The notes under the pieces were generated by a model, which did no database searches, was not told where the DNA came from, and was given only the letters and a program-made list of their open reading frames with translations. 64,000 nt of DNA, taken from Candidatus Shapirobacteria bacterium. Lineage in GTDB: Bacteria; Patescibacteriota; Microgenomatia; UBA12405. The stretch lies in contig JBBAAS010000001.1 of NCBI GenBank assembly GCA_041658125.1, positions 15,917 through 79,916 on the forward strand. Reading direction: 5' to 3'. Position numbers and translations under genes: made by a program. Below, one piece after another: positions 13,796 to 55,323 of this stretch. Each line of letters starts with the position of its first letter. Within the stretch, counting starts at the first letter, position 1.

Positions 13796-13799
13796 ATTT

Positions 13800-19984: not shown

Positions 19985-20025
19985 AAAAATTAGTGGTTAT
20001 GATTCCGGCTTATAACGAGCGATGA
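19981..20025 (+). pseudogene. Truncated N-terminus of a DPM1-like GT2 gene (14 codons then stop)
   Basis: atgaaaaaattagtggttatgattccggcttataacgagcgaTGA encodes MKKLVVMIPAYNER*. The ATG overlaps the dehydrogenase stop (ATGA). The motif matches the N-terminus of the intact GT2 at 26059 (LILIPAYNEE). It is cut off 10 bp before a convergent low-GC gene. Confidence 0.55.
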
Positions 20026-20034
20026 CGAGTAGCA

Positions 20035-21306: not shown

Positions 21307-21307
21307 A

Positions 21308-22603: not shown

Positions 22604-22610
22604 TTGATTT

Positions 22611-23429
22611 TTATATTTTGGGAAAATGGTAATACTGTTTGAAAGAAGTGGTAGGAAAATCTTTGAGAATAGTTTTCAGTTTATTCAATGTTCTATTGAT
22701 ATTGTAATAGTGAATAAAATATTCTTTGGGTGGTAATTTTATTCTTGGCTGGAGAAGATCAATTTCCCGGGGATGAATATAAAAGATTACCGGTTGTTTT
22801 TGTTGATTTATTTTATGGGTAAAATATTTTATAAAGATAGAAGGGAAACAACGCAAATAAAAACCACCAGAAAATGGAATCCTTTTACGGAAGATTTGAT
22901 AGGTAGAAGGAGGAATTTCTAATATGCCCCCGATAGTACTTTGAAATTGGTCGGCATGATTATCTCCGTAAAGAAAAGTTTTAAAAGGGAAGATACTAGA
23001 TGAATATTTGAAACCATAATTTTTTAAAGTTTGCCAAAACCAGGGAGTTCGATTCTGATCAACGGACCATGCTGGAGCACGATAGCCAATTATTTTTTGG
23101 TGAGTTAAGTTCTCAAGAATATCTTTTGATTCTTTTACATCGTTTTCAAATTGTTTTTGGCTCATGTTGTAAATAAAGTTATGATGGAGTGTGTGACAAG
23201 CAATTTCATGTCCCTGTTTAAAAATTTCTTTGATTAGCTGTGGGTGTTTTTGGGCAATCTCACCGACGACAAAAAAGGTACCAAAATTATTGCTTTGTTT
23301 AAGCAATTTTAATATTTTTTCAGTTGGATCTAAAATTCTGAAGTCGTTGGTTTTTATGGATCGCCCTTCTGGTGAGGAATGATACCAGTCCTCTAGATCT
23401 ACAGAAAAGATATTTGTATACTGCTTCAT
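22611..23429 (-). CDS. Polysaccharide deacetylase (CE4), PEP-CTERM-locus-type
   Basis: 272 aa. IFSVDLEDWYHS N-terminus, HEIACHTLHH metal-binding His motif. Confidence 0.7.
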   Translation of the reverse strand: MKQYTNIFSVDLEDWYHSSPEGRSIKTNDFRILDPTEKILKLLKQSNNFGTFFVVGEIAQKHPQLIKEIFKQGHEIACHTLHHNFIYNMSQKQFENDVKESKDILENLTHQKIIGYRAPAWSVDQNRTPWFWQTLKNYGFKYSSSIFPFKTFLYGDNHADQFQSTIGGILEIPPSTYQIFRKRIPFSGGFYLRCFPSIFIKYFTHKINQQKQPVIFYIHPREIDLLQPRIKLPPKEYFIHYYNINRTLNKLKTILKDFPTTSFKQYYHFPKI

Positions 23430-40333: not shown

Positions 40334-41497
40334 TTATATATTCGAATAGTACTGAATAAGATTTTTAATCAGATAGTTCATCGATAGCTTTTTCTTGGCC
40401 AAAATTACTTTTTTAGTGAGAAGCGCTTGTTGTTTGGGATTATAAAGCATTTTAACGGTTTTTTGAGCTAACTTTTTTAAATCTTTATCGATAATGGCGC
40501 AGTGGTAAGGCTTGACGATATTTGAGCCTTCTGAATCGTTATCGTTAACGATGACAATTTTTTCGGCATTGAGGTAGGCGCTAATTCTCATGGGGCAGCC
40601 GGCTTTTTCGGGGCGTCCATCGCCGGAAAGAAAGATACAGGCGTCAACGGCGGAGAAATAGACAGAGAGTTGTTGGTCGTTTTGATAACCCTGGGGACTG
40701 ATGTCAATAATATTTTTAAAGATGACGGGATCAATTTCACCATTTAAATGTTCGTTTTCATAAATCTTTTTGGGGTTGAAGTTGGAAATTAATTTAATAG
40801 ACTTATCGATTTGATAGATATACTCAAAAGTCTTAAGAAAATTGTAAGTACGGCTATGACCAGCAAAAGTTGTACCAATGGCGAAAAGGTATTTGGTATT
40901 TGGCTCAAGGCCAAGTTGTTGACGACAACCTGTTTTGTCTAATTGATCGTAGTGATTAACACTGATGCCATTAATTATTTTAATAACATTGGTAGCACCA
41001 CGTTTTTCAGCCAAATCTGCAAGAAGTGTGCTACAAACACAGTAATTTTTGAGGTATTTTGGGAAAAAGTGTTCGCAAAAATGAATGTAGGCGGTGACGA
41101 GAGGGTGAACGATAAACGCTTCTTCGCAGAGGTCATCCCAATCCATAACAACTTTTTTGCCAAATAGTTTTAAAAATAAAGCCGGAATATTGGATTCAAA
41201 TTGAGAAGGCATGGCGGTGTGAATAATATCGTATGGCTTGGTTAGTCCGAAGATTAAGGCAATAATACCTCTCAAAATTCGACCATTAATGTAAAAGTTT
41301 AGACTGATTCGCGGGAGTTCATAAAGCGTAAAGTATTGATTGATTTTCTTTTTGCTGATCCAAGGAAAAAACTTTTTATCGGAAGTCACCAATAAGTCGA
41401 TGTTAACCCGGTGTGCTGACAGGGCCGTACAGATATTCATGGCCCGATGGTAACCGCCAAAGTGAATAAAACAGGGTTCGACAAAAAGGACTTTCAT
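40334..41497 (-). CDS. Putative GT-B-fold glycosyltransferase-like protein
   Basis: 387 aa. N-terminal MKVLFVEPCFIHFGGYHRAMN with a Rossmann-like layout. Weaker C-terminal similarity to GT1/GT4. The family call is tentative. Confidence 0.4.
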   Translation of the reverse strand: MKVLFVEPCFIHFGGYHRAMNICTALSAHRVNIDLLVTSDKKFFPWISKKKINQYFTLYELPRISLNFYINGRILRGIIALIFGLTKPYDIIHTAMPSQFESNIPALFLKLFGKKVVMDWDDLCEEAFIVHPLVTAYIHFCEHFFPKYLKNYCVCSTLLADLAEKRGATNVIKIINGISVNHYDQLDKTGCRQQLGLEPNTKYLFAIGTTFAGHSRTYNFLKTFEYIYQIDKSIKLISNFNPKKIYENEHLNGEIDPVIFKNIIDISPQGYQNDQQLSVYFSAVDACIFLSGDGRPEKAGCPMRISAYLNAEKIVIVNDNDSEGSNIVKPYHCAIIDKDLKKLAQKTVKMLYNPKQQALLTKKVILAKKKLSMNYLIKNLIQYYSNI

Positions 41498-43060
41498 TTA
41501 TTTAATAATTTGATATTTTTTAGCGGCCTGGAGACGATGAGTTTTTAGCTCGCCGAATTTTAACTGGGAAAAAAACATGGTGAGCAAGTTTTTGGTAATT
41601 CTAAGTAAGTAAAAGAAATCTTCGCGGTTGTGAATTTTTCTGATAATGGCCAAGGGATGAGTTAGCGGCCAAAGTAATCGGTTAATCATTAATTTTTTAT
41701 CGGCGATATTTCTTAGAGAATGAAGTTCTGCGGCAGAGAAATATTTGTTGCCGGCACCAACATATCCGGAAAAAAGCTCGCCAATGTGGTTTTTAGAAAG
41801 TTGAGAGGGGTGAATGATATTTTCCTGAAGCATGATTTTAGTAACGTCAGTTTGAGGAAAGGGGATAAGAAGAATAAAGACAACAAAATCAGAATAAGAC
41901 TGAATGGCATATTTAAAAGTGGTCTTAATTTGATTTTTAGTTTCATAAGGAAAGCCGATGATGTAGGTGGAAAAAATCCAAAGACCAATATCTGAAGCAG
42001 TTTTGATAATCTCTTTGACTTTTTTAAGGTCGAGGTTTTTACGGATAAATTTTTGTGTTTCAGGGTGACCACTTTCAATACCAAAAGTGAGGCGATAACA
42101 ACCACTTTTTTTCATTTTTTCTAAAAGTGGCCGATCCAAGGTCCAAATAGCGATGCCATTAGGCGTGGTCCACTTGATATCGATTTTCTTAGCAATAAGA
42201 AGATCGCAAATTTTTTCCAGACGTTCCCTGCTAACTGAAATATTATCGTCCAAAAAATGAATTTCCCGAACGCCATAACGATCGATTACGGATTGAATTT
42301 CTTCAACGATCCTTTCGGCACTATAAGGTCGCCAAATTCGTCCCCAGATGCCGGGAACGGCACAATAAATACAATTACCCGGACAACCCCGACTGGTGAT
42401 GATTTCAGTTGATGGTGTTCGATAAGCATAGGATGAGGCATCGCGAGAAGTATTGAGGTAAATGTCCATCGGAAGTAGATGACGAGCCGGAGGAGGTAGT
42501 TGATTTAAGTCGGAAATATGGGGTCGGTTAGGATTAAGAATGAAATTTCCTTTTGAATCACGAGTGGCAGTGCCGGCAATATTAAAAACATTTTGGTGTT
42601 CAGATAGCTTTTGAGCAATTTCGAGCATGGTTTCTTCCCCTTCTCCGATAACAACAAGATCGACAGATTTTTGGGAAAGGACGACCTTGGGAAGAATGGA
42701 AGCATGGGAACCGCCAAGAATAGTTAGGATTTTTGGGTTGACCTTTTTAGCCAGCTTAGTGATTTCGTAAGCATCGGTAGCAAAGGCGGTGAACATTGAG
42801 GAAACACCAATTATGTCCGGTTGATAATACTTAATTTTTTGAACAATTTGGTTAGGAGTAAGGCCAACACGGATAGCGTGATGGGCTTTGATAATAGTGT
42901 TAAGACCTTCGGCGAGGACATCGATAATGGCGACAGAATAACCATGAACTTCAAGATAGGCGGCAACACTGGCTAGACCCAATGGGGGAACGCATCCGGG
43001 GGTAGTAGTGTCCCTTTGGCGAATGGTCATGGCAGGGCAAAAGAAAAGAATTTTTAACAT
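41498..43060 (-). CDS. Cobalamin-binding (class B) radical SAM enzyme
   Basis: 520 aa. B12-binding-like N-domain (GYSVAIIDVL ... IIGVSSMF ... TILGGSHAS), cluster motif SRGCPGNCIYCAV. Confidence 0.8.
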   Translation of the reverse strand: MLKILFFCPAMTIRQRDTTTPGCVPPLGLASVAAYLEVHGYSVAIIDVLAEGLNTIIKAHHAIRVGLTPNQIVQKIKYYQPDIIGVSSMFTAFATDAYEITKLAKKVNPKILTILGGSHASILPKVVLSQKSVDLVVIGEGEETMLEIAQKLSEHQNVFNIAGTATRDSKGNFILNPNRPHISDLNQLPPPARHLLPMDIYLNTSRDASSYAYRTPSTEIITSRGCPGNCIYCAVPGIWGRIWRPYSAERIVEEIQSVIDRYGVREIHFLDDNISVSRERLEKICDLLIAKKIDIKWTTPNGIAIWTLDRPLLEKMKKSGCYRLTFGIESGHPETQKFIRKNLDLKKVKEIIKTASDIGLWIFSTYIIGFPYETKNQIKTTFKYAIQSYSDFVVFILLIPFPQTDVTKIMLQENIIHPSQLSKNHIGELFSGYVGAGNKYFSAAELHSLRNIADKKLMINRLLWPLTHPLAIIRKIHNREDFFYLLRITKNLLTMFFSQLKFGELKTHRLQAAKKYQIIK

Positions 43061-43061
43061 T

Positions 43062-44522
43062 TTATTGCCTTGATTTGGCGGTTAATTTTTGGAAAATTTT
43101 AACAAGTAACTGACTACGGCTAATAAGAGAATGACTAATATCGGAAATTGGTTTAATTCTGGTGATAAGATAGAAAAAATATCCAAGATTACGGCCAAAC
43201 CTAAATTGAAAAAGTTTTTTTTCATAGAGGTTAAAGCCGATCTTCATAATATCATGTCGCTGAGTTTTGGTGAATTTGGTAGTTTCAAAAATAGGAGTGT
43301 TGTCCCGATAGGAAATGTTTTGAAGATAAGTTTTAGAAGGAACTAAAAACTTGGCATTTTTAATGGCCCAATCATAGACCGAGGTGCCTGGATAAGGAAC
43401 TAAATTGTAGAAATTAACGAAATTAGTGGGAAGGCTTTGAGCAAAGATTAAAGTTTCTTTGGCATCGGCATAAGATTCGTCCTGGTGGCCGATAATAAAA
43501 TTGACGGCATTTTTGATGCCGGCCGTGTTGGTCCAATCAATAGTTTTGCGGACCTGATCAAGTCGAATATTTTTACCGATAGTATCGATAACTTTTTGGC
43601 TGCCGGATTCGCAGCCGTAAGCGATAAAAAAACAACCGGCCTGTTTGAGTTTAAAAAGAAGTTCTCGGTCAACCCGGTCGACCCGAATACCATTGTAGAG
43701 CTGAAATTTAATTTTGAGATGGTGGTTGATGATCAGATCACAGATATCTTTGGCTCGTTTTAGATCAAGGGTGAAGCAGTCATCGTTGATATCAAAAGTG
43801 TGATAACCCTTTTTGTGCCAATATTTTATTTCTTTAAAAACATTGTCGGCGCTACGGGGTCGAAAACATTGTCCCATCGATAGACGGACGGAACAGTAAT
43901 TGCAGCCATAGGGACAACCGCGGGAAGTGATAATGGGAATAGTGTTTTCCCTAAAACAACCGTATCGTGAAAGGTCAAAAACATCAAAATCGGGAAACGG
44001 AAGCTGATCCAGATCAATAAGATATTTGTTTTTAGGATTGAGAACGATCTGGTTTTTATTTTTCCAGATTAGACCGGGGACTTGAGAATAATCAGGTTTT
44101 TTTTGGATAAATTCTTTTAAGAATTTAAAAAAGGTGTCTTCGGCTTCACCAATAATGGCAAAATTTACCCCGGTGGATTGAATGATTTGTTCACGAACAG
44201 CAGAAACATGGGGTCCTCCAGCAATAATAGGGATGGAAGTGTACTTTTGAATATTTTTGACTAGTTTATCCATAAAAACCGAGGCATAGCTAAAACCGGT
44301 TACCCCAATAATATCCGGCTTAAAATTGTCGATAAGGTAATAAAGCTTTTGGTGATTGGTTTCAACGCCTTCGTCAAATACTCTTACCTGATACCCCTTA
44401 GATACGAGAAACGATGAAAGATAGGCAATACCGACGTGAGGATAGAGAGGAGGAGCAACATTGTTGCCGTACATTGATTTAACCTTGGGAATAGCAAAGA
44501 GTATTTTTTGGCTATTTTTCAT
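43062..44522 (-). CDS. Cobalamin-binding (class B) radical SAM enzyme
   Basis: 486 aa. GYQVRVFDEG ... IIGVTGFS ... IIAGGPHVS, cluster motif SRGCPYGCNYCSV. Tandem with 41498..43060 (1-bp gap). Confidence 0.8.
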   Translation of the reverse strand: MKNSQKILFAIPKVKSMYGNNVAPPLYPHVGIAYLSSFLVSKGYQVRVFDEGVETNHQKLYYLIDNFKPDIIGVTGFSYASVFMDKLVKNIQKYTSIPIIAGGPHVSAVREQIIQSTGVNFAIIGEAEDTFFKFLKEFIQKKPDYSQVPGLIWKNKNQIVLNPKNKYLIDLDQLPFPDFDVFDLSRYGCFRENTIPIITSRGCPYGCNYCSVRLSMGQCFRPRSADNVFKEIKYWHKKGYHTFDINDDCFTLDLKRAKDICDLIINHHLKIKFQLYNGIRVDRVDRELLFKLKQAGCFFIAYGCESGSQKVIDTIGKNIRLDQVRKTIDWTNTAGIKNAVNFIIGHQDESYADAKETLIFAQSLPTNFVNFYNLVPYPGTSVYDWAIKNAKFLVPSKTYLQNISYRDNTPIFETTKFTKTQRHDIMKIGFNLYEKKLFQFRFGRNLGYFFYLITRIKPISDISHSLISRSQLLVKIFQKLTAKSRQ

Positions 44523-45537
44523 TAAAAGATGGTTTTAGAAATATAGACTTTCTAATTTTAGCAATTAGATTTTCATGAACAAAAATATATGGGAATATTT
44601 CCTTGTCAGAACAAACTCTTTGTTGTTGGATGTGTTTTCTTTTAAGCTTAGTTGATTTGAGTGACGACAGGTTCCAGAGTATTCCTTTTATAATTAGAAA
44701 AGACTCGTTAAATTTACCAGTGATAAAAAGATAAAGAGAAAAGAAGAAATAAATAGTAATTTGTCTTGGTAAGATCTTCAAGAGATTGGTTGTTTCCAGG
44801 TTTTTTATTAAGGAGAGGATGTAATTTTTAGTACCATGAAATCGAAGATTGTAAGTGGCAAAGTTTTTATTTAACAGTTTAAAACTACCGGAAAACCCAT
44901 GATAAACAATTGATTTTGGACAAAAAAAGGTTTGATAGCCTGAAAGCCAGGCTCGCCAGCAAAGATCAGTTTCTTCCATATAAATAAAATAGTCCGGATC
45001 AAAACCGCCGATTTGATCAAATACCTTTTTGCGGATAAACATGCCGGCTGATTTGGCGGCAAAGATGGGAACTTCTTTGTCGTGTTGGCCGTGATCGAAA
45101 TCGCCGTAGGTGGCCCGATGAGAGAGGAGACCGAATTGATTTAGATAGTCTCCGGCATAATCGAAATACCGGGGATGATTGATGAGAAGCAGTTTAGACT
45201 GAAGACAGCCGATTTTTGGATTTTTAGTAAAAAGGGAGTTGGCGGCAATTAACCAATTTTTATCAACCTTAGTATCGTTGTCAAGAAAAGCTAAATAGCG
45301 ACCGGAAGCTATTTTAGCGCCTTGATTGCGGGCATAAGAAGGACCGAAGTTATCGGTGAGGGTAATAATTTTTATCTGAGGATATTTTTTTTGAATAATT
45401 GATGAAGTATTGTCAGTGGAAGCATTATCAACGACGATAATTTCGTAGTTCCGGGTTTTAATTTTTAAGATTGACTGAAGACAGGCTTCAAGTACTTTCC
45501 GACCGTTATAGTTGACGATGATGATTGATACCTCCAT
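44512..45537 (-). CDS. Glycosyltransferase family 2 (GT-A)
   Basis: 341 aa. VSIIIVNYNGRKVLEACLQSI ... EIIVVDNASTDNT. Confidence 0.85.
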   Translation of the reverse strand: MEVSIIIVNYNGRKVLEACLQSILKIKTRNYEIIVVDNASTDNTSSIIQKKYPQIKIITLTDNFGPSYARNQGAKIASGRYLAFLDNDTKVDKNWLIAANSLFTKNPKIGCLQSKLLLINHPRYFDYAGDYLNQFGLLSHRATYGDFDHGQHDKEVPIFAAKSAGMFIRKKVFDQIGGFDPDYFIYMEETDLCWRAWLSGYQTFFCPKSIVYHGFSGSFKLLNKNFATYNLRFHGTKNYILSLIKNLETTNLLKILPRQITIYFFFSLYLFITGKFNESFLIIKGILWNLSSLKSTKLKRKHIQQQRVCSDKEIFPYIFVHENLIAKIRKSIFLKPSFNEK

Positions 45538-45539
45538 GG

Positions 45540-46328
45540 TTATTTTTTTGTTAAGATAAGGTGGTAACGAGTGGCAAATCTTTCGTCTTTGTCAATGGTA
45601 TCAATTAATAAACCGCTTATATTAGTTATAAAAAAGATAATAGGACAAGTAACTAGTAATAAGATTTTAACGGGAACAGCTCCTTCAGTAATTTTCCTAA
45701 TTATATATTGGTTAATGATTGTTGCCAGTGACGTACCAAAAAATGATTTGACAACAATAGAGTTAACTCGAAAGTTGTTTTTATTTGCTAATTTTGTTAA
45801 ACATGATTTGGTATATCTGAAGTAATCATAACCGGTATCACCACCATGATCACGATAGATAAACGGTACGGAAATAAGGCATACGCCTCCTTTTTTTAGA
45901 ACACGTCCGGCCTCACTAAAAAATTTATTAGGGTCACTGATATGCTCCAGAACTTCAAAGGCACAGTACGTATCAAAAGTTTTATCTTTGTAAGGAAGAT
46001 TAAGAGCATTACAAACCCTGTCGACACTGTTTGTAGTTTTCGACTTTCCGTAAAGGTAGCTGGTGATTAATCCCAAGGCGCCTGATTTTTTATTATGATG
46101 TTCAAAGATCGTCTTCCAGGAAGAATAATCGGTTGAAATATATGAATGAATATTCTTTCCATATTGTTTTAACACCCGTTCTTTGGTTGAACCATTACCA
46201 CAACCGGTTTCGATTACTTTTCCTTTAAACTTTTTATATAATATTTCATTGGCGAAATCAGCATTTCTAAATTCTAACCAGTGAGGATAAAACGGTGTCC
46301 CTGTTAGTAAAAATCTGATTATATTCAT
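45540..46328 (-). CDS. Class I SAM-dependent methyltransferase
   Basis: 262 aa. Motif I KVIETGCGNGSTKERV, later FDTYCAFEVLEHI. Confidence 0.7.
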   Translation of the reverse strand: MNIIRFLLTGTPFYPHWLEFRNADFANEILYKKFKGKVIETGCGNGSTKERVLKQYGKNIHSYISTDYSSWKTIFEHHNKKSGALGLITSYLYGKSKTTNSVDRVCNALNLPYKDKTFDTYCAFEVLEHISDPNKFFSEAGRVLKKGGVCLISVPFIYRDHGGDTGYDYFRYTKSCLTKLANKNNFRVNSIVVKSFFGTSLATIINQYIIRKITEGAVPVKILLLVTCPIIFFITNISGLLIDTIDKDERFATRYHLILTKK

Positions 46329-46369: not shown

Positions 46370-47539
46370 TTAATCAAAAACGGGGTTAAGCGAGCAGCAC
46401 CTAAAACAAGCAGGAATCAATCGATTTTTTTTGATGTATTTTTGAAATTTTTGGGTTTTTTGACTATGCCAAATGTGGTCTAGGGTATTTTTTTGAATGT
46501 TGCCAAGAATGTAGCCATGACACATTTCAACGTCACCGTTACCACGAAGATAGATTTGGTTGAACGGTGAAGTGCACTTAGAGTGAATTGAAGGAAATTT
46601 GCCGGTATAAAAACTATCAATATCGGTGGTGTTTGGAAAACTTACGCGCAAACGGGTGTGTGAAGCAGCTAGTTTTTGTTTGATAGTATCAAGTTTCTGA
46701 GAGATTAATTGTCTTTGGAAACCATCAAAATAAATTTTATTTGAGCCGTTGTCTTCTCCCCAAACATCAGAGCCAAAGTTTTTGGTTTGACTCAACTTTT
46801 CCTGTTGTTTTTTTATAGAATTATAATAATAGAAGTGATGGCTAATGGACCATTGGTCAACCCCAAGACTTTGAGCGATATTAAAGATTTGATCAAAGTT
46901 TTCAAGATTAGCCTTAGAGATGACGGTGGCAAGACGGATATTAGGGAGGATATTTTTTCCTCTTAATTTGACAATTTTTTCAATACCTTTAAGAATTTGA
47001 GTAAATGAGTTTTTGACTAAACCGCGCTCATATTGAGTTGGTTCGTCGGGACCATCGAGAGAAATAGCTAAAAAATCCAGACCAGAGTCTATTAATTCGG
47101 GAGCTATTTTTTCAAGCAGAAGACCATTGGTAACCAAACCTTTGGTCATTTTTTGGCGGGTAAGATGGTTGATGATTTTGATAATTTCCGGATGTAAAAG
47201 CGGTTCGCCGCCGGCCAGAGAAATAGATGGCGAATATGGGGCTATTTGATCGAAGAACGGAGCCAATTTTGAATACGGCATTTCAGTTAGATTTCTTAAG
47301 CGGGATTGTGCAACGTGGCACATGGGACAGTTAAAGTTACACTTTTCCGTGATAAAGCAGTTAATAAATCGAGGGTACGGTGTTGGTTTATAGCGATTGA
47401 AAGAATCCTGAAATTCATGCCAAGCAGTTTTGGGATATTTGTAGGCGAGGATAAATTTTTTGTGAAAATCGATATTAATCACGGTTGTAAGAGTTAATAA
47501 TAACTTTGGCATTTTTATCACTGAAGTGTTCGATAGCAA
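46370..47539 (-). CDS. Radical SAM enzyme with C-terminal SPASM/twitch-like Cys-rich domain
   Basis: 389 aa. ITEKCNFNCPMCHV (CX3CX2C). C-terminal CTSPFNQIYLRGNGDVEMCHGY ... IPACFRCCS auxiliary-cluster-like cysteines. Confidence 0.7.
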   Translation of the reverse strand: MLSNTSVIKMPKLLLTLTTVINIDFHKKFILAYKYPKTAWHEFQDSFNRYKPTPYPRFINCFITEKCNFNCPMCHVAQSRLRNLTEMPYSKLAPFFDQIAPYSPSISLAGGEPLLHPEIIKIINHLTRQKMTKGLVTNGLLLEKIAPELIDSGLDFLAISLDGPDEPTQYERGLVKNSFTQILKGIEKIVKLRGKNILPNIRLATVISKANLENFDQIFNIAQSLGVDQWSISHHFYYYNSIKKQQEKLSQTKNFGSDVWGEDNGSNKIYFDGFQRQLISQKLDTIKQKLAASHTRLRVSFPNTTDIDSFYTGKFPSIHSKCTSPFNQIYLRGNGDVEMCHGYILGNIQKNTLDHIWHSQKTQKFQKYIKKNRLIPACFRCCSLNPVFD

Positions 47540-48638
47540 AGGCTTTAGTTGTTTTGGACATGGTTTTTATTTGATTTGGATGATTGATAAGCCATTTGAT
47601 CGTTTTTTGAAGATTTTTGACCGTAGGATTAAGTGAGATGCCGATCTTGTCATTATACATTTCGGTGACAGAACCTTTGTTGCCAGTAATTACCGGTCGA
47701 CCGCAACTTAAACCTTCGATAATTTGGTTGGGGAAGGCTTCTTCGACCAGATTGGGAAGAATGACAAAATCGGAGGCGGCGAGGTAATTAATGATTTGAG
47801 GATGGTTTAGCCGACCAAGAATTTTAAAATTAGAAACAGAAAGCGATTGGGTGATTAATGTTTTGGCGTCGGGTCCGTCTCCAGCCAGAAGAAAGAGAAC
47901 GTTTTGGGGGAGTTTTTGGGCTACCTTTAACAGATTAAAAATGCCTTTGGTTTTAACAAAGCGACCAAAATAAAAAAAAACCAGTGATTTTTGAGGAATA
48001 TTTAAAAGACGACGAGCAGTGGTTTTATTTTTGGGAACGAACTCTTTTTGATTAATCCAATAACGAAAAACTTTGATTTTTGAAGCCGGTAAGCCGATTG
48101 AGATAAGTTCTTTTTTGGATTGATGACTGACTGCCAGGATGGTGTCAAAACCGGAAAATGTCCATTTAAAAATTTTGGTGTAAATTGAATTTGGATTAAG
48201 CCGATGATAGATAAAGTGAGTACTGACCACGGAAGTTTTTTGGGGGAGAAAAAGTTTAATAATTCGGGTAATAAAGGCGGCGGCAAAGCCATGAGCGTGA
48301 ATGACATCAAACTTATTTTGTTGTTTTAAGCAGTAGGAGAGACTGTTGAAAAAAAGTCCGGGGACTATGTATAAAAATTGAAATAATGGATAGGGAGTGG
48401 TTTTATCAAAAAGCCCAAGACCATACCACCAGTAGCGGTGGATGGTGAGATTGGGATGGTTTTCGTGTTTAAGATAATTAACGACAATTGATAGAGGTTT
48501 GTAGGTTAAAACAGTGGTCGGAAAATTATGAGATGACAAAAAATCGGTAAGTTTATTAAGGTGGGTTTCAACTCCGCCGATATTAGGAAAAAAGAAAGGG
48601 GTGATAATAAGGATGCGGGGCTTATTTGGTTTTAACAC
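47475..48638 (-). CDS. Glycosyltransferase family 4 (GT-B)
   Basis: 387 aa. ILIITPFFFPNIGGVETHLNKL ... VILPNLVEEAFPNQIIEGLSCGRPVITGNKG. Confidence 0.8.
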   Translation of the reverse strand: MLKPNKPRILIITPFFFPNIGGVETHLNKLTDFLSSHNFPTTVLTYKPLSIVVNYLKHENHPNLTIHRYWWYGLGLFDKTTPYPLFQFLYIVPGLFFNSLSYCLKQQNKFDVIHAHGFAAAFITRIIKLFLPQKTSVVSTHFIYHRLNPNSIYTKIFKWTFSGFDTILAVSHQSKKELISIGLPASKIKVFRYWINQKEFVPKNKTTARRLLNIPQKSLVFFYFGRFVKTKGIFNLLKVAQKLPQNVLFLLAGDGPDAKTLITQSLSVSNFKILGRLNHPQIINYLAASDFVILPNLVEEAFPNQIIEGLSCGRPVITGNKGSVTEMYNDKIGISLNPTVKNLQKTIKWLINHPNQIKTMSKTTKAFAIEHFSDKNAKVIINSYNRD

Positions 48639-49305
48639 GAAAACTTTTTAAGATATAAATAAATTGAAAAGCTAAAAGATTTTGAAAAATGGGAAATCGG
48701 TGTCCAAGACCAGTAGGAATAGTTTTAATAACGGAGAAGCCGGTCGATTGAAAAAGTTTAATGCCTGTTTTTAGGGTAAAAAAACGTAAATGATCCGGAC
48801 TAAGAATACCAAATTGATAATCAAAAGAACCAAAAAGAAGCTTTAGCCGAATTTCTAAACGGGCGATATTGGGCAAGGAAACTATTACCATGCCGTTTGG
48901 TTTAAGATATTTGTGAATATCAAGTAAGACCTTGTCGGGGGCTGGTAGGTGTTCAAGAATGTCGGATAAAACAATATAATCATATCGATGATGGGGAATA
49001 TTAAGATGAGGATGATAAAGATCCCGAATATATGTATGACGGTAGTGTTTTTGGGCAATTTTTATTAATTTTGGATTGATATCAATACCATCGACGATAA
49101 CTTTTTTTCTTAGGAGTTGTTTGCCTAAAAGTCCAGTATTGCAACCAACATCGAGAACTTCTGAATTATTAGAAATTAAGTTGTAGATAAGACTATGGGG
49201 GCTATGAGGCGATGTATTGAAAGGAATAGGGCCGTCTTTTTGAAAAATTTTCATATTATTGTTGCCAGTGCGATCGGTCAATGATGTTTTTTTGGCCGAT
49301 AACAT
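48622..49305 (-). CDS. Class I SAM-dependent methyltransferase
   Basis: 227 aa. Motif I EVLDVGCNTGLLGKQLL, YDYIVLSDILEHL. Confidence 0.75.
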   Translation of the reverse strand: MLSAKKTSLTDRTGNNNMKIFQKDGPIPFNTSPHSPHSLIYNLISNNSEVLDVGCNTGLLGKQLLRKKVIVDGIDINPKLIKIAQKHYRHTYIRDLYHPHLNIPHHRYDYIVLSDILEHLPAPDKVLLDIHKYLKPNGMVIVSLPNIARLEIRLKLLFGSFDYQFGILSPDHLRFFTLKTGIKLFQSTGFSVIKTIPTGLGHRFPIFQNLLAFQFIYILKSFRVKTK

Positions 49306-50266
49306 TTTTTAATGTAGCGGAAAAATAGACAAAAAAACTAATTAAACAGGCAAGCGGATGAAAAAACCAGGCAAAATCGGGTTTTTTTAGATAACCACGG
49401 AATGAGTCAAAAATGGGAGGAATAAGAGTGATGGTGTAAAGACTAAATTTAACGGTGGCAGAGCGATTGTTTTTTTGCCAATTGAATTGTCTAATGTTTT
49501 GAAATTGATAAAAGTCGACTATACGGCGTTTTTGTTTACGAATAAACTTTTTGATCGATGATTCGCAAAAGGTATGAATAATACCGACTTTAACTTTGGC
49601 AAAATAGAGAGGTTGATGAGTTTGATGAATGACAGAAGTAATAATATCGATATCAAAAAAATAATCACCCTTAAAATAATTTTTAAGAAAATCGTGGCGA
49701 AAAATGGCACCATTAGCACCAATTGTAGGAAGCAGTTCGTTTGGATTAAGTTTGATTTTAAGATAATTAGGAAAGTCTTGAGTTTCAATTTTTAAACCGG
49801 TCCACTTGCCGGACAGATAACTATATCGATCGTAAATACCGGAGATGTAAGCGTAAGGATCATTGGCACCGATCAGAGCAGAATATCTTTCAGTAAAGCC
49901 AGCATCGCGACGATAAGTAAAACTGATCGGTTCACTACCAATAATTTGAGGGTCTTTTTGAAGAGGCAAAAGCATTTTTTTAAGCCAATTTTTTGAAGGT
50001 AAAAGATTATCAGAGTCAAGGAAAACGAGATATTTGCCTTTGGCATGGCGAATGCCAACGGCCTTGCCGGCTTCTCCGGTTTTTAGCGGGTTTTTAAAAA
50101 TTTTGGCCTTGAAGTTTTTAGCGACAATTAGAGTGTTGTCGGTAGAACCACCGTCGGCAATAATAATTTCGTAATCTTTAATGGTTTGAAGAGAAATTGA
50201 TTGAAGACAATCTTTTAGGACTTTTCCGGCATTGAGGGTGGGAGTGATGAAACTAACTAAAATCAT
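49256..50266 (-). CDS. Glycosyltransferase family 2 (GT-A)
   Basis: 336 aa. ILVSFITPTLNAGKVLKDCLQSI ... EIIIADGGSTDNT. Confidence 0.85.
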   Translation of the reverse strand: MILVSFITPTLNAGKVLKDCLQSISLQTIKDYEIIIADGGSTDNTLIVAKNFKAKIFKNPLKTGEAGKAVGIRHAKGKYLVFLDSDNLLPSKNWLKKMLLPLQKDPQIIGSEPISFTYRRDAGFTERYSALIGANDPYAYISGIYDRYSYLSGKWTGLKIETQDFPNYLKIKLNPNELLPTIGANGAIFRHDFLKNYFKGDYFFDIDIITSVIHQTHQPLYFAKVKVGIIHTFCESSIKKFIRKQKRRIVDFYQFQNIRQFNWQKNNRSATVKFSLYTITLIPPIFDSFRGYLKKPDFAWFFHPLACLISFFVYFSATLKNVIGQKNIIDRSHWQQ

Positions 50267-51722
50267 TTAATTTTTTAAAAAATTTAATAGTGTACCGGAA
50301 AAGATGCTGAACGTCCTCAAAAGATCGGATGTGAATTATTTGGTTAAAAAGAAACTTGGGAGTAATGATGCCGTTAAAAAGTTGCTGAATGAGTTTTTTT
50401 TGATTGGTGGAAGAAAGCCGGGATTTTATAACCGGTTGGCTCATGTCATATTTGTCCCAGTCAGTTGTTTTTAACAGTTTGTTCCGGCGACAATAGTTAA
50501 AAAGCGGAGTGCCCGGGTAAGGAATAACGATGGTGGCTTGAATACTGTCAGCAAGACCACGGCGGAAAAAGTTTTTAACAACTTCAAAAGTTTGATAGGT
50601 ATCATTTTGAGTTTCCCAGGGATAGCCAATCATGGCGGTTAAGTGGGGGAAAAGGTTAGCTTTTTTAGCCATAGTTAGGTCCTGAAGAGCGTTGCCAACC
50701 CGATTATTTTTATTGATTTTGTCGAGAGTTTTTTGGTTGGCGGATTCAAAACCATATAGAAGCATTCGAAAGCCGGCTTGAGCCATTAGCTGGTATTGTG
50801 ATTGATTAAGAACGCCGAAACGCATATTGCAACTGATGGTAACTTTTTGGTGGAGTTTTTTTTGAATAATCAGGTGGCAAAAGTTTTCAAGCCACTCCCC
50901 TACCGGAAAAGTGCCGGAGTCATCAAAAATTTCTTTGACCTTAAAGTTGTTGACTAAATTTTCGATTTCGGCAACGGCGCGGTTAGGAGAGAAGCAACGG
51001 TATTGTTTGCCCGGATAAAGGGTGGTCCAGGAGCAAAAAGTACATTGACCCCACCAACAGTCGCGGGAGAACATGGTATAAGCTCCGGGAGTATATTTAA
51101 AATTGCTGTTACGGACAGAATATAAATGCCATTTGGTTAACTGGCGATCGATTAGGGGAAGTGGGTCCAGAGAATGATGTTTTAAGGAAAAACGACCAGA
51201 ATTGGTAATGATATTGTTTTTTTTGAAATAAAAACCTGGTTCTAGTTTTTTGCCATGGGTTAGATGGCGGCAGAGGTTCAGAAGCATAAAGTCGTAGTCG
51301 CCGCCGGTTATAACGAAATCCACAGGACATTTTTTTAATGACTCTGTGGGGAGAGCGGTAACATGATCACCCATAAGAACGATCACAGCTTGGGGTAAAA
51401 GTTTTTTAATTTCGGTAATAAGATGCCAATGTTTTTTGATGACCGGGGTTTTGGTTTCAATGGCAATGAGTGATGGGTTGTTTTCTAACAAGCGTGATAA
51501 CCATGCCGAATAATTTAATTTTTCGGCGATAGCGTCATCCCAAAAAACGGTGTAACCATTTTGAGATAACAAAGTAGCGGCAGAAGCAGGAATAACAGGG
51601 TAAATAATGTTGTCGGTATGAGTCCATTGAAACTGACGATTTTGAGATAGAAACGGAGACCCTTTAGCCGAGGATAAGGGTGGATAGGAAATAGAGACAC
51701 TGAAGTTTTTAGCCGCCGACAT
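50253..51722 (-). CDS. Cobalamin-binding-domain radical SAM enzyme with non-canonical CX4CX2C cluster motif
   Basis: 489 aa. N-terminal Rossmann-like domain (GYTVFWDDA ... IAIETKTP ... VLMGDH). Cluster motif SRDCWWGQCTFCSW at ~51033-51059. Confidence 0.7.
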   Translation of the reverse strand: MSAAKNFSVSISYPPLSSAKGSPFLSQNRQFQWTHTDNIIYPVIPASAATLLSQNGYTVFWDDAIAEKLNYSAWLSRLLENNPSLIAIETKTPVIKKHWHLITEIKKLLPQAVIVLMGDHVTALPTESLKKCPVDFVITGGDYDFMLLNLCRHLTHGKKLEPGFYFKKNNIITNSGRFSLKHHSLDPLPLIDRQLTKWHLYSVRNSNFKYTPGAYTMFSRDCWWGQCTFCSWTTLYPGKQYRCFSPNRAVAEIENLVNNFKVKEIFDDSGTFPVGEWLENFCHLIIQKKLHQKVTISCNMRFGVLNQSQYQLMAQAGFRMLLYGFESANQKTLDKINKNNRVGNALQDLTMAKKANLFPHLTAMIGYPWETQNDTYQTFEVVKNFFRRGLADSIQATIVIPYPGTPLFNYCRRNKLLKTTDWDKYDMSQPVIKSRLSSTNQKKLIQQLFNGIITPKFLFNQIIHIRSFEDVQHLFRYTIKFFKKLNDFS

Positions 51723-52695
51723 AGTTACCTGTCATTTTATCAGTTTGGTGGGGTTTAAAGATGAGGTTGGGTTTAAAGAAGCCAATTGGAAACAAAAGAC
51801 CATAATAAAGATGAGTTAAAGGGATTGTAATAATTGCCAAAAAAGAGGGAAATAATTGATTTTGTGTTATTAAAAATTTTATAAAAGTTAATATAAGTAA
51901 AATTAAATACAGAAATATGGGTAATAAAATGAGTAAGTTGTGATAACCAAGAAGCGTGGCAAAAGTTAAAAAAACAGAATAAAAGAAAAACACACTGGGA
52001 ATAAGATAACCAAAACGAAAGCTGGTTTGAGGGAAAATTTTGGCGAATTGACCACGGTGAAGGGCATAGCGACTGATTTGTTGGAGGTGAGGTAAAATAA
52101 CTGCCCGGCGATGGTGGTAAACGACAACAGAAGGGTGGTAAAGTATTTTTTTCTTTAACTTTTGGGTAAGATCAAGACAAAGGATGGTGTCTTCTCCGGG
52201 CCAATAATTAGTTTTGAAGCCTTTTATCTTAAAAAAATCATTTTTTTTGACAATGAGATTGACGGACGGATAGTCGTCAACGAAACGAGCTGCCCCGATA
52301 CTGTTGCGGTAAGCTCCGGCTCCCCCACTACCTAGCCAAGAAGACCAGACCAGACCGGAAGCTTTTTGATATGGAGTATCGGTTGGGGGGATTAAGCAAG
52401 GACCGCAAACGGCGGCAATATTGGAATCTAATAGAAGTAATTCGGCGTTTTTTAACCAATTTGCATCGGGATAAGAGTCATCGTCTAAAAATGCAAGATA
52501 TTTTCCTTTGGCTAGCTTGACTCCGAGATTTCTTTTGACAGCCGGATTGGGAGTTTTGGAGATTTTATCGGTGATTACCAGGACCTCAAACTTATTTTCG
52601 GTTTGACTTTCAAGATGTCGGAGAGTTTCCGTTAAATAGACAGTCGGCTGACGAACAGGAATAATGATGGAAAAAAGAATTTTTTTAGCCGACAT
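51709..52695 (-). CDS. Glycosyltransferase family 2 (GT-A) with C-terminal TM segment
   Basis: 328 aa. LFSIIIPVRQPTVYLTETLRHL ... EVLVITD ... LAFLDDDSYPDANWL. Confidence 0.7.
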   Translation of the reverse strand: MSAKKILFSIIIPVRQPTVYLTETLRHLESQTENKFEVLVITDKISKTPNPAVKRNLGVKLAKGKYLAFLDDDSYPDANWLKNAELLLLDSNIAAVCGPCLIPPTDTPYQKASGLVWSSWLGSGGAGAYRNSIGAARFVDDYPSVNLIVKKNDFFKIKGFKTNYWPGEDTILCLDLTQKLKKKILYHPSVVVYHHRRAVILPHLQQISRYALHRGQFAKIFPQTSFRFGYLIPSVFFFYSVFLTFATLLGYHNLLILLPIFLYLILLILTFIKFLITQNQLFPSFLAIITIPLTHLYYGLLFPIGFFKPNLIFKPHQTDKMTGNYVGG

Positions 52696-53488
52696 TGACC
52701 CTCATATCCAGATCTTTATCGTAGACCCATTTACGTTTGTTTTTGTCGTCGTAATATTTTTTAATACGAAGACGATAGAAGACGGATAGAGCATCAACTA
52801 ATGCCCTATAAATGACTTTGAAACCGACAGCATGAGTAAAACCGGTGTGGTCGTAGTTGAGTTTTATGGGGGCCTCGTAAATTCTTTTAAAACCAAGATA
52901 GTTAGAGACTGATAAGATTTCAAGGTCAAAAGCATAATTTTTGACCAAAAGACGGGGAAGAACTTTTATCAGAACCTGGCGCTTAAATATTTTTAAGCCG
53001 GCTTGAGTGTCACGGACATTGATTCCAAGAAGATATTTGGCGACAATTTGAGCACAAAAACTGATAATTTGACGGTGAAAAGGATAATTAACGATAGAGG
53101 CCGGATGACGTTTACTGGCGACAATAATATCGGCGTTGTACCACTCCATGTGCTCCAAAACCATAGAAATGGCATTGGGGTCTATTTCCATGCCGGAGTC
53201 AATAAAAGCAACGTAGTCGCCTTTGGTGTGGGCCATGCCATAACGAACGGCGTAACCCTTCCCGTGGTTGAGATGATAGCCAATAATTTTTGTTTTAGGA
53301 ATTTTGGCTTTCTTTAAAAATTGGTATGATTTGTCGACACTGATGCCATCGATAACGCAAATTATTTCGTAACCGTAACGGATTTGTTGAAGAGTATTTT
53401 GAATGTTTTTAATATCGGCAACGATTGTTTGTTCCTGTTTATAAACAGGAACAATGACGGAAAGAAAATGGGGTTCAGAGCTAGACAT
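52685..53488 (-). CDS. Glycosyltransferase family 2 (GT-A), DPM1-like soluble type
   Basis: 267 aa. LSVIVPVYKQEQTIVADIKNI ... EIICVIDGISVDKS ... VAFIDSGMEIDP. Confidence 0.8.
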   Translation of the reverse strand: MSSSEPHFLSVIVPVYKQEQTIVADIKNIQNTLQQIRYGYEIICVIDGISVDKSYQFLKKAKIPKTKIIGYHLNHGKGYAVRYGMAHTKGDYVAFIDSGMEIDPNAISMVLEHMEWYNADIIVASKRHPASIVNYPFHRQIISFCAQIVAKYLLGINVRDTQAGLKIFKRQVLIKVLPRLLVKNYAFDLEILSVSNYLGFKRIYEAPIKLNYDHTGFTHAVGFKVIYRALVDALSVFYRLRIKKYYDDKNKRKWVYDKDLDMRVNVG

Positions 53489-54566
53489 TGAAAAGAGCTA
53501 ATTTGTAAACAGCAAGAGTTTGAAGTGCAGTTTTTTGCCAATCAAAAAATTTGGCTCTTTTTAGTCCTAAAGAACGATATTTTTCCAAAAGATTTTTGTC
53601 AGACCAAAGCTTTTTTAAAGATAATTTAAGATCAGCAATAGAATGTGGGTCAAACATCACACCGTTTTGGTCCATAATTTCGTCAAGACAACTTTCTTGG
53701 CCGTAAACTACCGGACAGCCGGTTTTCATAGCTTCGACCAGAGGTAGACCAAAACCTTCGGCAAAGGACGGTTGACAATAAATAGTGGCTAAGTTATAAA
53801 TGCCGACAAGTTCTTGAGTAGAAACAAAACCGGTGAGAATAATAGAATCTGGACGTAAAGAGGCTTGTTTTTGTAACCAAATTAAATCGTGATTCCACGG
53901 GTGAGAAATAATCTCTTTTTGATTAGCGGCAGAACCAGCTATAGCCAATGGAAATTTTAAGTCAAGGCAGGCGCTTACTAGAGTGGGTAAATTTTTATTC
54001 CAGTTAACATCACCCACATATAAGATAAATTTGTCGGGAAGATGGTAACGATTTTTGAGACTAAGTAGATCTTTTTGATTATTAAGTGGTTTGAAATCGG
54101 CGTTGGATGATAAATAGGTTACATAAATTTTGTCCGTTGGATAACCAGTAAGATTGTTGATAATAAATTTTGAACAATGACTATCGGTAATAAGATATTT
54201 GGCTTTATTCAGCCGGTATTTTTGAATCAGCCACTTGATTTCACCTTTTATGCCAACCGGATAGTGGGATTTAAATTGTCGGGGAATGAGATCGTGGACG
54301 GTGACTATAAAAGGAGTTTTTGAACGATAAGGTAAGGTTAAAAAAAATGGATCGAAATAGGGGTAGTGGATTAATTGATAATTGTTTGGATTAAAATGAT
54401 TGGTGATTAGGTCAATTTGCCAATTTAAATATTCGGGATTAGTTTTGGTCTCGTGTTGAAGAGCGTCGACCAAGTGCCTGGTGTAGTAACCGACACCACG
54501 AGTGGAATTTTGATCAGACAGGGGCGAAACATCAATGGCGATTTTAACTTTTTTGAATAGAACCAT
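53481..54566 (-). CDS. Glycosyltransferase family 4 (GT-B)
   Basis: 361 aa. KIAIDVSPLSDQNSTRGVGYYTRHLVDAL ... IYCQPSFAEGFGLPLVEAMKTGCPVVYGQES. Confidence 0.8.
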   Translation of the reverse strand: MVLFKKVKIAIDVSPLSDQNSTRGVGYYTRHLVDALQHETKTNPEYLNWQIDLITNHFNPNNYQLIHYPYFDPFFLTLPYRSKTPFIVTVHDLIPRQFKSHYPVGIKGEIKWLIQKYRLNKAKYLITDSHCSKFIINNLTGYPTDKIYVTYLSSNADFKPLNNQKDLLSLKNRYHLPDKFILYVGDVNWNKNLPTLVSACLDLKFPLAIAGSAANQKEIISHPWNHDLIWLQKQASLRPDSIILTGFVSTQELVGIYNLATIYCQPSFAEGFGLPLVEAMKTGCPVVYGQESCLDEIMDQNGVMFDPHSIADLKLSLKKLWSDKNLLEKYRSLGLKRAKFFDWQKTALQTLAVYKLALFNV

Positions 54567-55323
54567 AATATTTTATGTAGGCAGAACGATGACTAATGGC
54601 TGAATAATAGGCAAAAACAAATCCAGAAAAACCATCGACAAAACCGAGATGTCGAAGATATATACTAAAAAAAGTAGAGAATGGTAGCCATAAGAAGAAT
54701 TTAAAAAAACTAACAAAGTTAATTGGGGTGTGTTTTTCCTGCAGATCATCGGCCATAAGTGAGGTGTAGCGGTTGTTGCGAGTAAGGTAACGTTCAAAGT
54801 TTAAATCGGCATAATGGAGAAGATGGCCTGAAAGTTGGCCGATTTTGCCATCGACAACGGCTTGTTCGTGAACAGACTGACAGGGGAGATAAGCTTGGCC
54901 ATTTTTATAAAAACGGATGGTTGGGTCGGGATATTGGCCTCCTTTGGTTAAAAATCGATTGAGAAAAAAGTTTTTACGACGAATCCAAAAACCATTTTCT
55001 GAAACGGACTCCGGTTTTGTTTGAAGTATGGTTAAAATTTCTTTTTGAAGATCGTTGTCGACAACCTCATCGGCATCAAGCTGAAGAATCCAATCACTTT
55101 GGCAATTTTTAATGGCCAGCTCCTTGTTGTGATGAAACATCGGCTGATTGGGAGCAGAGATAATTTTAGTTTTTTTATATTTTTTGGCAAGATTAACTGT
55201 TTGGTCTTGGGATTGACCGTCAACGATGACAATTTCATCGACCCAGTCGACAACAGCATCGAGACTTTTTTTGATATTAGCTTCTTCGTTATAAGTGGCT
55301 ATGGCTATTGAGATAGTGGTCAT
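54544..55323 (-). CDS. Glycosyltransferase family 2 (GT-A)
   Basis: 259 aa. ISIAIATYNEEANIKKSLDAVVDWVDEIVIVDGQSQDQT ... LQLDADEVV. Confidence 0.85.
   Translation of the reverse strand: MTTISIAIATYNEEANIKKSLDAVVDWVDEIVIVDGQSQDQTVNLAKKYKKTKIISAPNQPMFHHNKELAIKNCQSDWILQLDADEVVDNDLQKEILTILQTKPESVSENGFWIRRKNFFLNRFLTKGGQYPDPTIRFYKNGQAYLPCQSVHEQAVVDGKIGQLSGHLLHYADLNFERYLTRNNRYTSLMADDLQEKHTPINFVSFFKFFLWLPFSTFFSIYLRHLGFVDGFSGFVFAYYSAISHRSAYIKYYGSIQKS

Follow-up and report, generated by a model that had tools for sequence, protein, structure and literature searches.

A predicted twitch-type radical SAM enzyme paired with a glycosyltransferase in an envelope-glycan cluster of Candidatus Shapirobacteria

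Introduction

What does a radical S-adenosylmethionine (SAM) enzyme do when its gene is packed among glycosyltransferase genes, and is its substrate a sugar or a peptide? This question is raised by a minus-strand gene in a 64-kb stretch of contig JBBAAS010000001.1 from a Candidatus Shapirobacteria bacterium, the whole of which we refer to as the window. An original prediction, made from the letters of the DNA, read this gene as a sugar-tailoring enzyme with a SPASM/twitch-like C-terminus. Our analysis makes it probable that the product is a two-cluster, twitch-type radical SAM enzyme that tailors a sugar of a cell-envelope glycan in Shapirobacteria and related bacteria of the Candidate Phyla Radiation (CPR), acting as a module with a family 4 glycosyltransferase (GT4) encoded by the coupled upstream gene. 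Within this reading glycan tailoring as the role is well supported, and the class of substrate is suggested by the genomic context. Sugar tailoring is preferred over peptide maturation, as originally proposed, because of the synteny of the glycan cluster, the position of the GT4 gene directly upstream in 10 of 12 orthologous loci, the fusion of related proteins to glycosyltransferases of families 2 and 28 (GT2 and GT28), and the relatedness to the solved enzymes BlsE, BtrN and DesII.

A radical SAM gene with eight conserved cysteines

An intact radical SAM open reading frame (ORF) spans positions 46370..47539 on the minus strand of the window. The start at 47539 that was first assumed is too far upstream, and the true start is probably the GTG codon at 47482, which gives a gene at 46370..47482 (-) encoding 370 residues. 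This assignment follows from three observations. First, homologues are 368-375 residues long, and their 'MINxD' N-terminus aligns to V11 of the longer form. Second, the end of the upstream GT4 gene (N-R-D-stop) overlaps GTG-ATT-AAT by 8 nucleotides (nt), and the orthologous locus L086 repeats this junction, with xTGATTAAT overlapping the stop of the GT4 gene by 8 nt; the equivalent sequence there is ATGATTAAT. Third, residues 1-11 of the AlphaFold2 (AF2) model of the 380-residue form have a predicted local distance difference test score (pLDDT) below 50. The alternative starts are ATG 47512, which yields these 380 residues and corresponds to the identical protein at NCBI (MFA4827216.1, 'radical SAM protein [Candidatus Shapirobacteria bacterium]', on a 108-kb contig), and TTG 47539, which yields 389. 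Residue numbers given here count from ATG 47512, whereas Pfam ranges count from TTG 47539 and are nine higher.

The Pfam family Radical_SAM (PF04055) matched residues 63-219 of the 389-residue ORF with an E value of 2.6e-20 and 73.7 bits (cut-off 29.5), which corresponds to residues 54-210 in the 380-residue numbering; Fer4_12 was matched as well. The protein has the hallmarks of the superfamily, namely the CX3CX2C and GGE motifs and, in the AF2 model (pLDDT 91; predicted template-modelling score 0.90), a core of alternating strands and helices. Pfam, invariant columns and the AF2 strands and helices together place the partial TIM-barrel core at 46838..47374 (-), approximately residues 47-225. 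Its CX3CX2C motif, C58-N-F-N-C62-P-M64-C65 (CNFNCPMC; 47318..47341, -), is the predicted site of the SAM-cleaving [4Fe-4S] cluster.

Conservation was read from an alignment of 24 sequences, with homologues extending down to 26% identity, and from a MAFFT alignment of the query with its 120 best homologues (121 sequences). The cysteines of CX3CX2C are invariant in the former and kept in 118 of the 121 sequences of the latter, and M64, a methionine where an aromatic residue is usual, is conserved in at least 90%, a feature also present in BlsE. Outside the cysteine motifs, the invariant residues among the 24 sequences are G101-G102-E103-P104-L105, N129, S151-L152-D153, R163 and Y302; towards the C-terminus they are C313, C331, G337, C369, R371, C372 and C373. 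The conserved cysteine columns of the MAFFT alignment are eight, three in the N-terminal motif and five near the C-terminus (116-121 of 121 sequences), to which a lineage-specific C52 is added. Such conservation down to 26% identity far exceeds chance, and the N-terminal motif and C-terminal cysteine cluster that had first drawn attention to this gene are thus real. As a weaker clue, the invariant R371, inside CFRCC, and R163 would be fitting partners for a substrate's phosphate or carboxylate.

The C-terminal iron-sulfur domain

SPASM domains follow the pattern CX9-15GX4C-gap-CX2CX5CX3C-gap-C and bind two auxiliary clusters (PMC6231123), while twitch domains are truncated SPASM domains that bind one (PMC6231123; PMC9012708). 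Whereas the original prediction named both, only the second assignment stood: judging from the cysteine pattern and profile comparisons, the C-terminal domain is of the twitch type, has an additional invariant cysteine, is predicted to bind one auxiliary [4Fe-4S] cluster, and is not a full SPASM domain. It occupies residues 300-380 (46373..46615, -), as located by Pfam SPASM and the match of a C-terminal profile of the family to BtrN, and is laid out as C313-X12-G326-X4-C331, a beta-hairpin, a helix, and C369-F-R371-C372-C373. The codons of its five cysteines lie at 46574-46576, 46520-46522, 46406-46408, 46397-46399 and 46394-46396 (-).

The evidence for this assignment is as follows. First, the C-terminal pattern is CX12GX4C-X37-CX2CC, and none of the 121 aligned sequences has the seven-cysteine SPASM motif or any further conserved C-terminal cysteine. 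Second, the AF2 model contains the hairpin (319-322, 327-329) and the helix (351-363) between the cysteines that typify a twitch domain. Third, a search of the whole PDB with a profile (A2) built from the final 91 residues gave the twitch domain of BtrN as the best match (E 1.7e-6), and the runners-up, SkfB and anSME, reached an E value of only about 0.01. In the A2 alignment C313, C331, C369 and C372 stand opposite Cys169, Cys187, Cys232 and Cys235 of BtrN, and C373 stands opposite N236. We take these four BtrN cysteines to be the ligands of its auxiliary cluster; the paper on BtrN cited further below says only that four cysteines fully ligate it. The Pfam SPASM model (PF13186), proposed at the outset as a means of telling the two domain types apart, does match residues 322-381 of the 389-residue ORF (E 2.7e-11, 44 bits), because this hidden Markov model covers the half common to both domains, yet the cysteine pattern and the A2 profile give twitch.

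Conserved pairing with a GT4 gene across CPR loci

A homologue search returned 1,282 proteins, of which about 80, from Shapirobacteria, Patescibacteria and Aureabacteria, are orthologues at a minimum of 45% identity. We compared 12 orthologous loci (at least 47% identity) from Shapirobacteria, Woesebacteria and Aureabacteria, namely the window, L001, L003, L005, L006, L007, L086, L087 and L090-L093. Loci that extend far enough have a common core of genes in the same order, with 52-74% identity, which is best seen in L001, L003 and L006. This core runs from a PMT-like gene through GT2, GT4, GT2, GT2, a B12-binding radical SAM gene (B12-rSAM) and GT2 to a variable cassette, after which come GT2, two B12-rSAM genes, sometimes a GT4-like gene, and a tetratricopeptide-repeat (TPR) gene.

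The orthologue of the radical SAM gene lies within the variable cassette in all 12 loci. Directly upstream of it, with an overlap of 0-8 nt, a GT4 gene is found in 10 of them, and in the other two, L006 and L090, the GT4 gene is two to three genes away. A B12-rSAM of 463-467 residues adjoins the orthologue in 10/12 loci and is absent from the window and L001. A second radical SAM/SPASM gene, of 336-339 residues, precedes the GT4 gene in eight of the 12 (L003 7855-8874, L005 7690-8706, L086 3850-4869, L087 3818-4831; also L091-L093) and is missing from the window. The usual module therefore consists of three radical enzymes and a GT4, and the cassettes of the window and L001 are reduced or replaced: both slots are taken by class-I methyltransferases in the window, and by epimerase/dehydratase genes of the short-chain dehydrogenase/reductase (SDR) type in L001 and partly in L090. 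More distant relatives, with 31-39% identity, also lie in glycan contexts, together with PMT_2, GT2 and methyltransferase genes in L004 and L088, and with a Wzx-like flippase, GT4 genes and an SDR in L089.

An exhaustive profile search extended the family to 6,311 representatives of 50% identity clusters (E of 1e-30 or lower). Among its top matches were fusion proteins, namely P0144, a GT2 with two radical SAM/SPASM domains; P0203, a radical SAM/SPASM protein with Glyco_tran_28_C and a second radical SAM domain; and P0191 and P0214, in which a B12-rSAM is fused to the target family. These fusions tie the family to glycosyltransferases and B12-rSAM partners independently of the synteny. The fusion proteins are metagenomic, and some exceed 1,000 residues. 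Our searches of this superfamily branch (about 6,300 clusters at 50% identity) found no characterised member, and our literature search on radical SAM glycan clusters of CPR/Patescibacteria and on twitch sugar epimerases found no account of this cluster.

Comparison with characterised enzymes

Most of the known carbohydrate-tailoring twitch radical SAM enzymes belong to pathways for aminoglycoside and nucleoside antibiotics, and by sequence the closest solved relatives of the target appear to be the sugar enzymes BlsE, BtrN and DesII. With a profile of the whole protein, BlsE came first in the PDB (1.3e-26, core only), followed by SkfB, MoaA, PqqE, CteB, GDGT-MAS, BtrN, anSME, DesII and viperin.

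BlsE, the cytosylglucuronate decarboxylase of blasticidin S biosynthesis (PDB 7VOB), superimposes on the target with template-modelling (TM) scores of 0.61/0.69 and a root-mean-square deviation of 4.2 Å. Its CxxxCxMC motif (PMC3715490) is the unusual one that the target has, and its substrate is a sugar nucleoside. However, the match is restricted to the radical SAM core, residues 42-217, and membership of the BlsE family TIGR04466 failed, with 67.2 bits against a cut-off of 400. Moreover, an auxiliary cluster is not reported for BlsE in PMC3715490, while the target has its five invariant C-terminal cysteines.

BtrN, the 2-deoxy-scyllo-inosamine dehydrogenase of the butirosin pathway (PDB 4M7T) and the founding twitch radical SAM enzyme, likewise combines CX3CX2C with a C-terminal twitch domain. 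Its four C-terminal cysteines, including the GX4C element, align with those of the target, and its substrate is a carbohydrate-type small molecule. The auxiliary cluster of BtrN has been proposed as electron acceptor (PMC6231123). The likeness has limits, since the significant match covers only the last ~70 residues (E 1.7e-6), next to a generic core match of 56.9 bits in two stretches. With about 250-270 residues, BtrN is also without the two-helix extension of the target, its insert of ~75 residues (226-300) and its fifth cysteine (CX2CC), and it belongs to an aminoglycoside antibiotic cluster, in contrast to the envelope-glycan cluster of the target.

DesII, a TDP-4-amino-4,6-dideoxyglucose deaminase/dehydrogenase (PDB 8HZV), is a radical SAM enzyme acting on a nucleotide sugar, with TM scores of 0.54-0.58 (E ~1e-13 to 1e-14) and a sequence-profile match of 1e-11; it has ~480-510 residues and a different C-terminal region, so that its match to the target is to the core only. 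NeoN and HygY, from aminoglycoside pathways, are twitch radical SAM sugar epimerases with a cysteine hydrogen donor, and are analogous to the target by function only. In NeoN, Cys249 is cited as the hydrogen-atom donor (PMC10991966). By this analogy C373, an invariant cysteine predicted not to be a ligand, is a candidate counterpart of the NeoN/HygY donor.

Of the analogues first suggested, BtrN is matched in its twitch domain, and AprD4 is not of this architecture, being of the B12-domain type. The AprD4 model NF033070 matches the B12-rSAM neighbours (81-94 bits) but is not among the 25 best of the 65 NCBIfam families matched by the target, in which Pfam found no B12-binding domain. Unlike the SPASM enzymes anSME, PqqE, SuiB and CteB, with which it has in common the overall fold and the motif's first half (CX9-15GX4C ... 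CX2C), the target is without the seven-cysteine motif, a peptide-recognition domain, a precursor gene and a sulfatase. What sets it apart is its CX2CC motif, together with an N-terminal extension of two helices, a helical insert of 75 residues, and the hard-wired pairing with a GT4 in a CPR glycan cluster rich in radical enzymes.

Evidence against a sugar substrate and the protein alternatives

Several results weigh against sugar tailoring. First, the best partial matches among NCBIfam models are a tungsten-cofactor maturase, viperin and AhbD, none at its cut-off. Second, the top Foldseek match in the PDB is an enzyme of peptides that are ribosomally synthesised and then modified post-translationally (RiPPs), SuiB, ahead of BlsE, DesII, SkfB, MoaA, viperin, PqqE and anSME. 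Third, relatives at 24-30% identity have different genomic surroundings; in Paenibacillus, for instance, the neighbours include an AMP-binding enzyme and a carrier protein. Fourth, sequence alone would not give the specific reaction.

With respect to the first result, the partial matches comprise W_rSAM_matur (112 bits; cut-off 380), viperin_w_prok (85/180), AhbD (82/500, over the full length), MoaA (77) and BlsE (67/400), and no NCBIfam model's cut-off was reached by the target. These scores are what speaks for an enzyme that matures a cofactor or metalloenzyme, or modifies a nucleotide (a tungsten-cofactor maturase, MoaA, AhbD/NirJ or a viperin-like protein), and whose location in a glycan cluster is coincidental. 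We regard this as very improbable, given that the scores fall 2- to 6-fold under the curated cut-offs, that tungsten, molybdenum and haem genes are absent nearby, that viperin is without an auxiliary cluster, and that strict pairing with a GT4 across 12 loci would be unexpected for a housekeeping maturase. Cofactor-maturase and viperin-like roles were accordingly down-weighted on account of the cut-offs and the glycan context.

The second result, SuiB at the head of a mixed Foldseek list, means that the fold alone cannot separate sugar from peptide substrates. In the structural comparison with BtrN and anSME that had been recommended, anSME was among these Foldseek matches, and BtrN came forward as the best match of the twitch profile. 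Consequently, a maturase of the SPASM/twitch class (SkfB, SuiB or anSME-like) has to be weighed, whose RiPP or protein target would have its gene elsewhere and might be, for instance, a surface protein glycosylated by the PMT-like enzymes. In overall fold the target is nearest to SuiB, SkfB and CteB; the sactisynthase SkfB is among the twitch enzymes; PMT-like enzymes of the GT-C type near the gene suggest protein O-glycosylation; and the GT4s weakly match TIGR04157, 'glyco_rSAM_CFB' (44 bits against 400). Against these points, all ORFs of at least 20 residues within 200 bp of the radical SAM gene lie inside neighbour genes in another frame. With an 8-nt overlap onto the GT4 gene upstream and only 41 nt to the methyltransferase gene downstream, there is no space for a precursor-peptide ORF; the homologous loci are equally tight, with gaps of -8 to +8 nt, so that the same holds across the 12 loci. 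Pfam found no RiPP recognition element (RRE) or PqqD domain in the target, no sulfatase was found among the scanned window genes or the neighbours in the loci, and the match to anSMEcpe is weak (56 bits, core only). RiPP maturase membership was thus rejected for want of an adjacent precursor gene and an RRE/PqqD domain, and anSME identity for want of the seven-cysteine motif and a sulfatase and because of this core-only match. Together with the closest solved sequence matches, which are sugar enzymes, this leaves the maturase alternative improbable. The original statement that no precursor-like small ORF lies nearby is upheld, and neither of the findings then named as telling against sugar tailoring, an adjacent precursor peptide or a best match to anSME accompanied by a sulfatase, was encountered.

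As for the third result, the differing contexts of the distant relatives imply that substrate class is not uniform across the superfamily of 6,311 clusters. For this reason, function was not transferred from the relatives at 24-30% identity in GTDB genomes (Acidobacteriota, Scalindua, Bacteroidota, Paenibacillus). These often adjoin B12-rSAM genes. In Paenibacillus silagei DSM 101953 (L032 4880-16887) and seven other Paenibacillus loci, a relative with 25% identity is paired with a second radical SAM/SPASM gene, and next to the two are genes for an AMP-binding enzyme, an SDR epimerase, a carrier protein and an ABC transporter. Cultivable Paenibacillus may offer a tractable system for the wider family, in a context that differs.

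The glycan island and the lipid alternative

The flanks named in the original prediction, a methyltransferase and a GT2 on one side and a GT4 on the other, were borne out by Pfam. The partner GT4 (47475..48638, -) matches Glycos_transf_1 (1.6e-24) and Glyco_transf_4 (1.1e-17); its best NCBIfam partial match is TuaC, with 100 bits against a cut-off of 550. Downstream of the radical SAM gene, a class-I SAM methyltransferase with a hydrophobic C-terminus (45540..46328, -; Methyltransf_11, 2.6e-14) occupies the slot of the 463-467-residue B12-rSAM, and upstream of the GT4 gene a second one (48622..49305, -; Methyltransf_23, 1.1e-19) occupies that of the 336-339-residue radical SAM/SPASM gene.

On both sides of this cassette lies the conserved core. 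Its downstream part (41498..45537, -) consists of a GT2 (44512-45537) and two B12-rSAMs (43062-44522 and 41498-43060), assigned by Pfam and 60-63% identical to the syntenic genes of L001, L003 and L006; none of these genes reaches an NCBIfam cut-off. Its upstream part (49256..55323, -) comprises, in transcription order, GT2 (54544), GT4 (53481), GT2 (52685), GT2 (51709), B12-rSAM (50253) and GT2 (49256), with 54-74% identity and unchanged order in L001, L003, L006 and L007. Further upstream, four tandem, large, paralogous membrane proteins of 520-545 residues are encoded (55320..61616, -). Two of them match PMT_2/PMT, of the GT-C type, one below cut-off: 58421-60010 matches PMT_2 (8.6e-9) and PMT (1.1e-6) above the gathering cut-offs, and 56860-58428 matches PMT_2 below it (2.5e-4, 21.8 bits against 26.1). 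In L001, L003 and L007 the cluster is likewise flanked by PMT-like genes in syntenic positions, and the array suggests several polyprenyl-phosphate-sugar-dependent transfers outside the membrane. Another PMT-like gene is situated at 4234-5661. The gene at the cluster's distal end, 40334..41497 (-), encodes a 387-residue protein that has no Pfam or NCBIfam match in its window version. It has 81 homologues in 5.8 billion proteins, many with PF13439, and syntenic copies of 44-50% identity in L001 and L006; these relatives mark it as a GT4-like protein that is divergent and restricted to its lineage.

All 64 kb of the window make up a glycan island. Its glycan genes include at least 10 GT2/GT4, a UDP-glucose dehydrogenase (18704-19984), an SDR, an acyltransferase and a Wzy_C-like protein whose match falls short of the Pfam cut-off. 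The B12-binding radical SAM genes number five (24585-26057, 27192-28637, 41498-43060, 43062-44522 and 50253-51722), and three of them belong to the core conserved across CPR loci. All five miss the NCBIfam cut-offs; the best partial matches are to the Sden_1168 P-methyltransferase (233 bits against 575), to ApyD, HpnJ and BchE, and to a family named 'lipid biosynthesis B12/rSAM'. Inside the island there are also a thiolase and a 3-hydroxyacyl-CoA dehydrogenase (20035-22603), and LPG_synthase_TM and Acyl_transf_3 genes (12872-15886), which may be linked to lipid or acyl decoration.

These genes bear on another alternative, namely that the lipid part is modified instead of the sugar, be it the polyprenyl carrier or a membrane or glycolipid chain, with the B12-rSAM neighbours as lipid methylases or cyclases. 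HpnH and GDGT-MAS/Tes are lipid-modifying radical SAM enzymes with such chemistry. The target partially matches HpnH (63 bits) and GDGT-MAS (62 bits, core only), the HpnJ, BchE-type and 'lipid biosynthesis B12-binding/rSAM' models are among the best for the B12-rSAM neighbours, and the thiolase, 3-hydroxyacyl-CoA dehydrogenase and LPG_synthase_TM genes are in the window. However, the HpnH-, GDGT-MAS- and HpnJ-type scores are far under the family cut-offs, the target gene is translationally coupled to a GT4 and not to a lipid enzyme, with the lipid genes more than 23 kb off, and both the nucleotide-sugar SDR enzymes in the cassettes of L001 and L090 and the fusions to GT2 and GT28 point to sugar. 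We therefore consider modification of the lipid unlikely, if somewhat less so than the maturase alternative.

With respect to base composition, the window has a very strong strand bias, with a GC skew of +0.26 whose sign is independent of gene orientation, most genes being on the C-rich strand. The skew at third codon positions is -0.455 in the minus-strand radical SAM gene and +0.465 in the plus-strand gene at 24585-26057. Along the window, the skew is lowered to 0.003 in the bin 20001-22000, and its mean across the block of thiolase/3-hydroxyacyl-CoA dehydrogenase genes (20035-23429) is 0.095.

Proposed reaction

If a sugar is the substrate, the cluster at CX3CX2C would reductively cleave SAM, and the resulting 5'-deoxyadenosyl radical would take a hydrogen atom from a carbon of the sugar handled by the GT4, either on a nucleotide- or lipid-linked donor or after transfer by the GT4. 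The substrate radical would then be resolved with help of the auxiliary cluster. Which reaction follows, be it dehydrogenation, epimerisation or decarboxylation, is a matter of speculation. The outcome that we favour is that a carbinol carbon is oxidised to a ketone in the manner of BtrN, which would yield a keto-sugar while the electron departs via the twitch cluster. The cassette neighbours may process such a keto-sugar further, these being class-I methyltransferases in the window, SDR in L001 and B12-rSAMs in most loci: the methyltransferases could act by C-methylation of an enolate or by O-methylation, and an SDR reductase could bring about a net epimerisation. Alternatively, the enzyme might itself be an epimerase in which the invariant C373 donates the hydrogen atom, as in NeoN and HygY, or it might decarboxylate a uronic acid in a BlsE-like manner. 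A BlsE-like decarboxylase acting on glucuronic acid was demoted to a minor alternative, as the UDP-glucose dehydrogenase, the TuaC-like GT4 and CxxxCxMC are all weak indications.

Implications for CPR surface glycans

The target reaches no curated family, and the kind of enzyme, a carbohydrate-tailoring twitch radical SAM enzyme, is already known; its architecture holds nothing unexpected for the superfamily, and no long-standing question is resolved. As a small protein of 370 residues, it is nevertheless a concrete target for enzymology. In most relatives the module also includes a second radical SAM/SPASM enzyme and a B12-rSAM, and the cluster adds three B12-rSAMs and multiple GT-C enzymes. 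It is possible, if on balance doubtful, that the GT4 and the twitch enzyme are the constant heart of a 'glycosylate, then radical-modify' module, in a cluster that builds a CPR-specific glycan or glycolipid with undescribed radical modifications and whose swappable cassette gives diversity at the strain level. If true, these modifications could be, for example, C-methyl-branched, epimerised, decarboxylated or C-C-linked sugars undescribed for bacterial envelope polysaccharides, and the diversity of the cassette would resemble that of O-antigen loci. Should the sugar-tailoring role hold, radical chemistry would contribute to the surface glycans of episymbiotic, genome-reduced CPR bacteria, and the variable cassette around the GT4-radical SAM pair would be a source of their surface variation.

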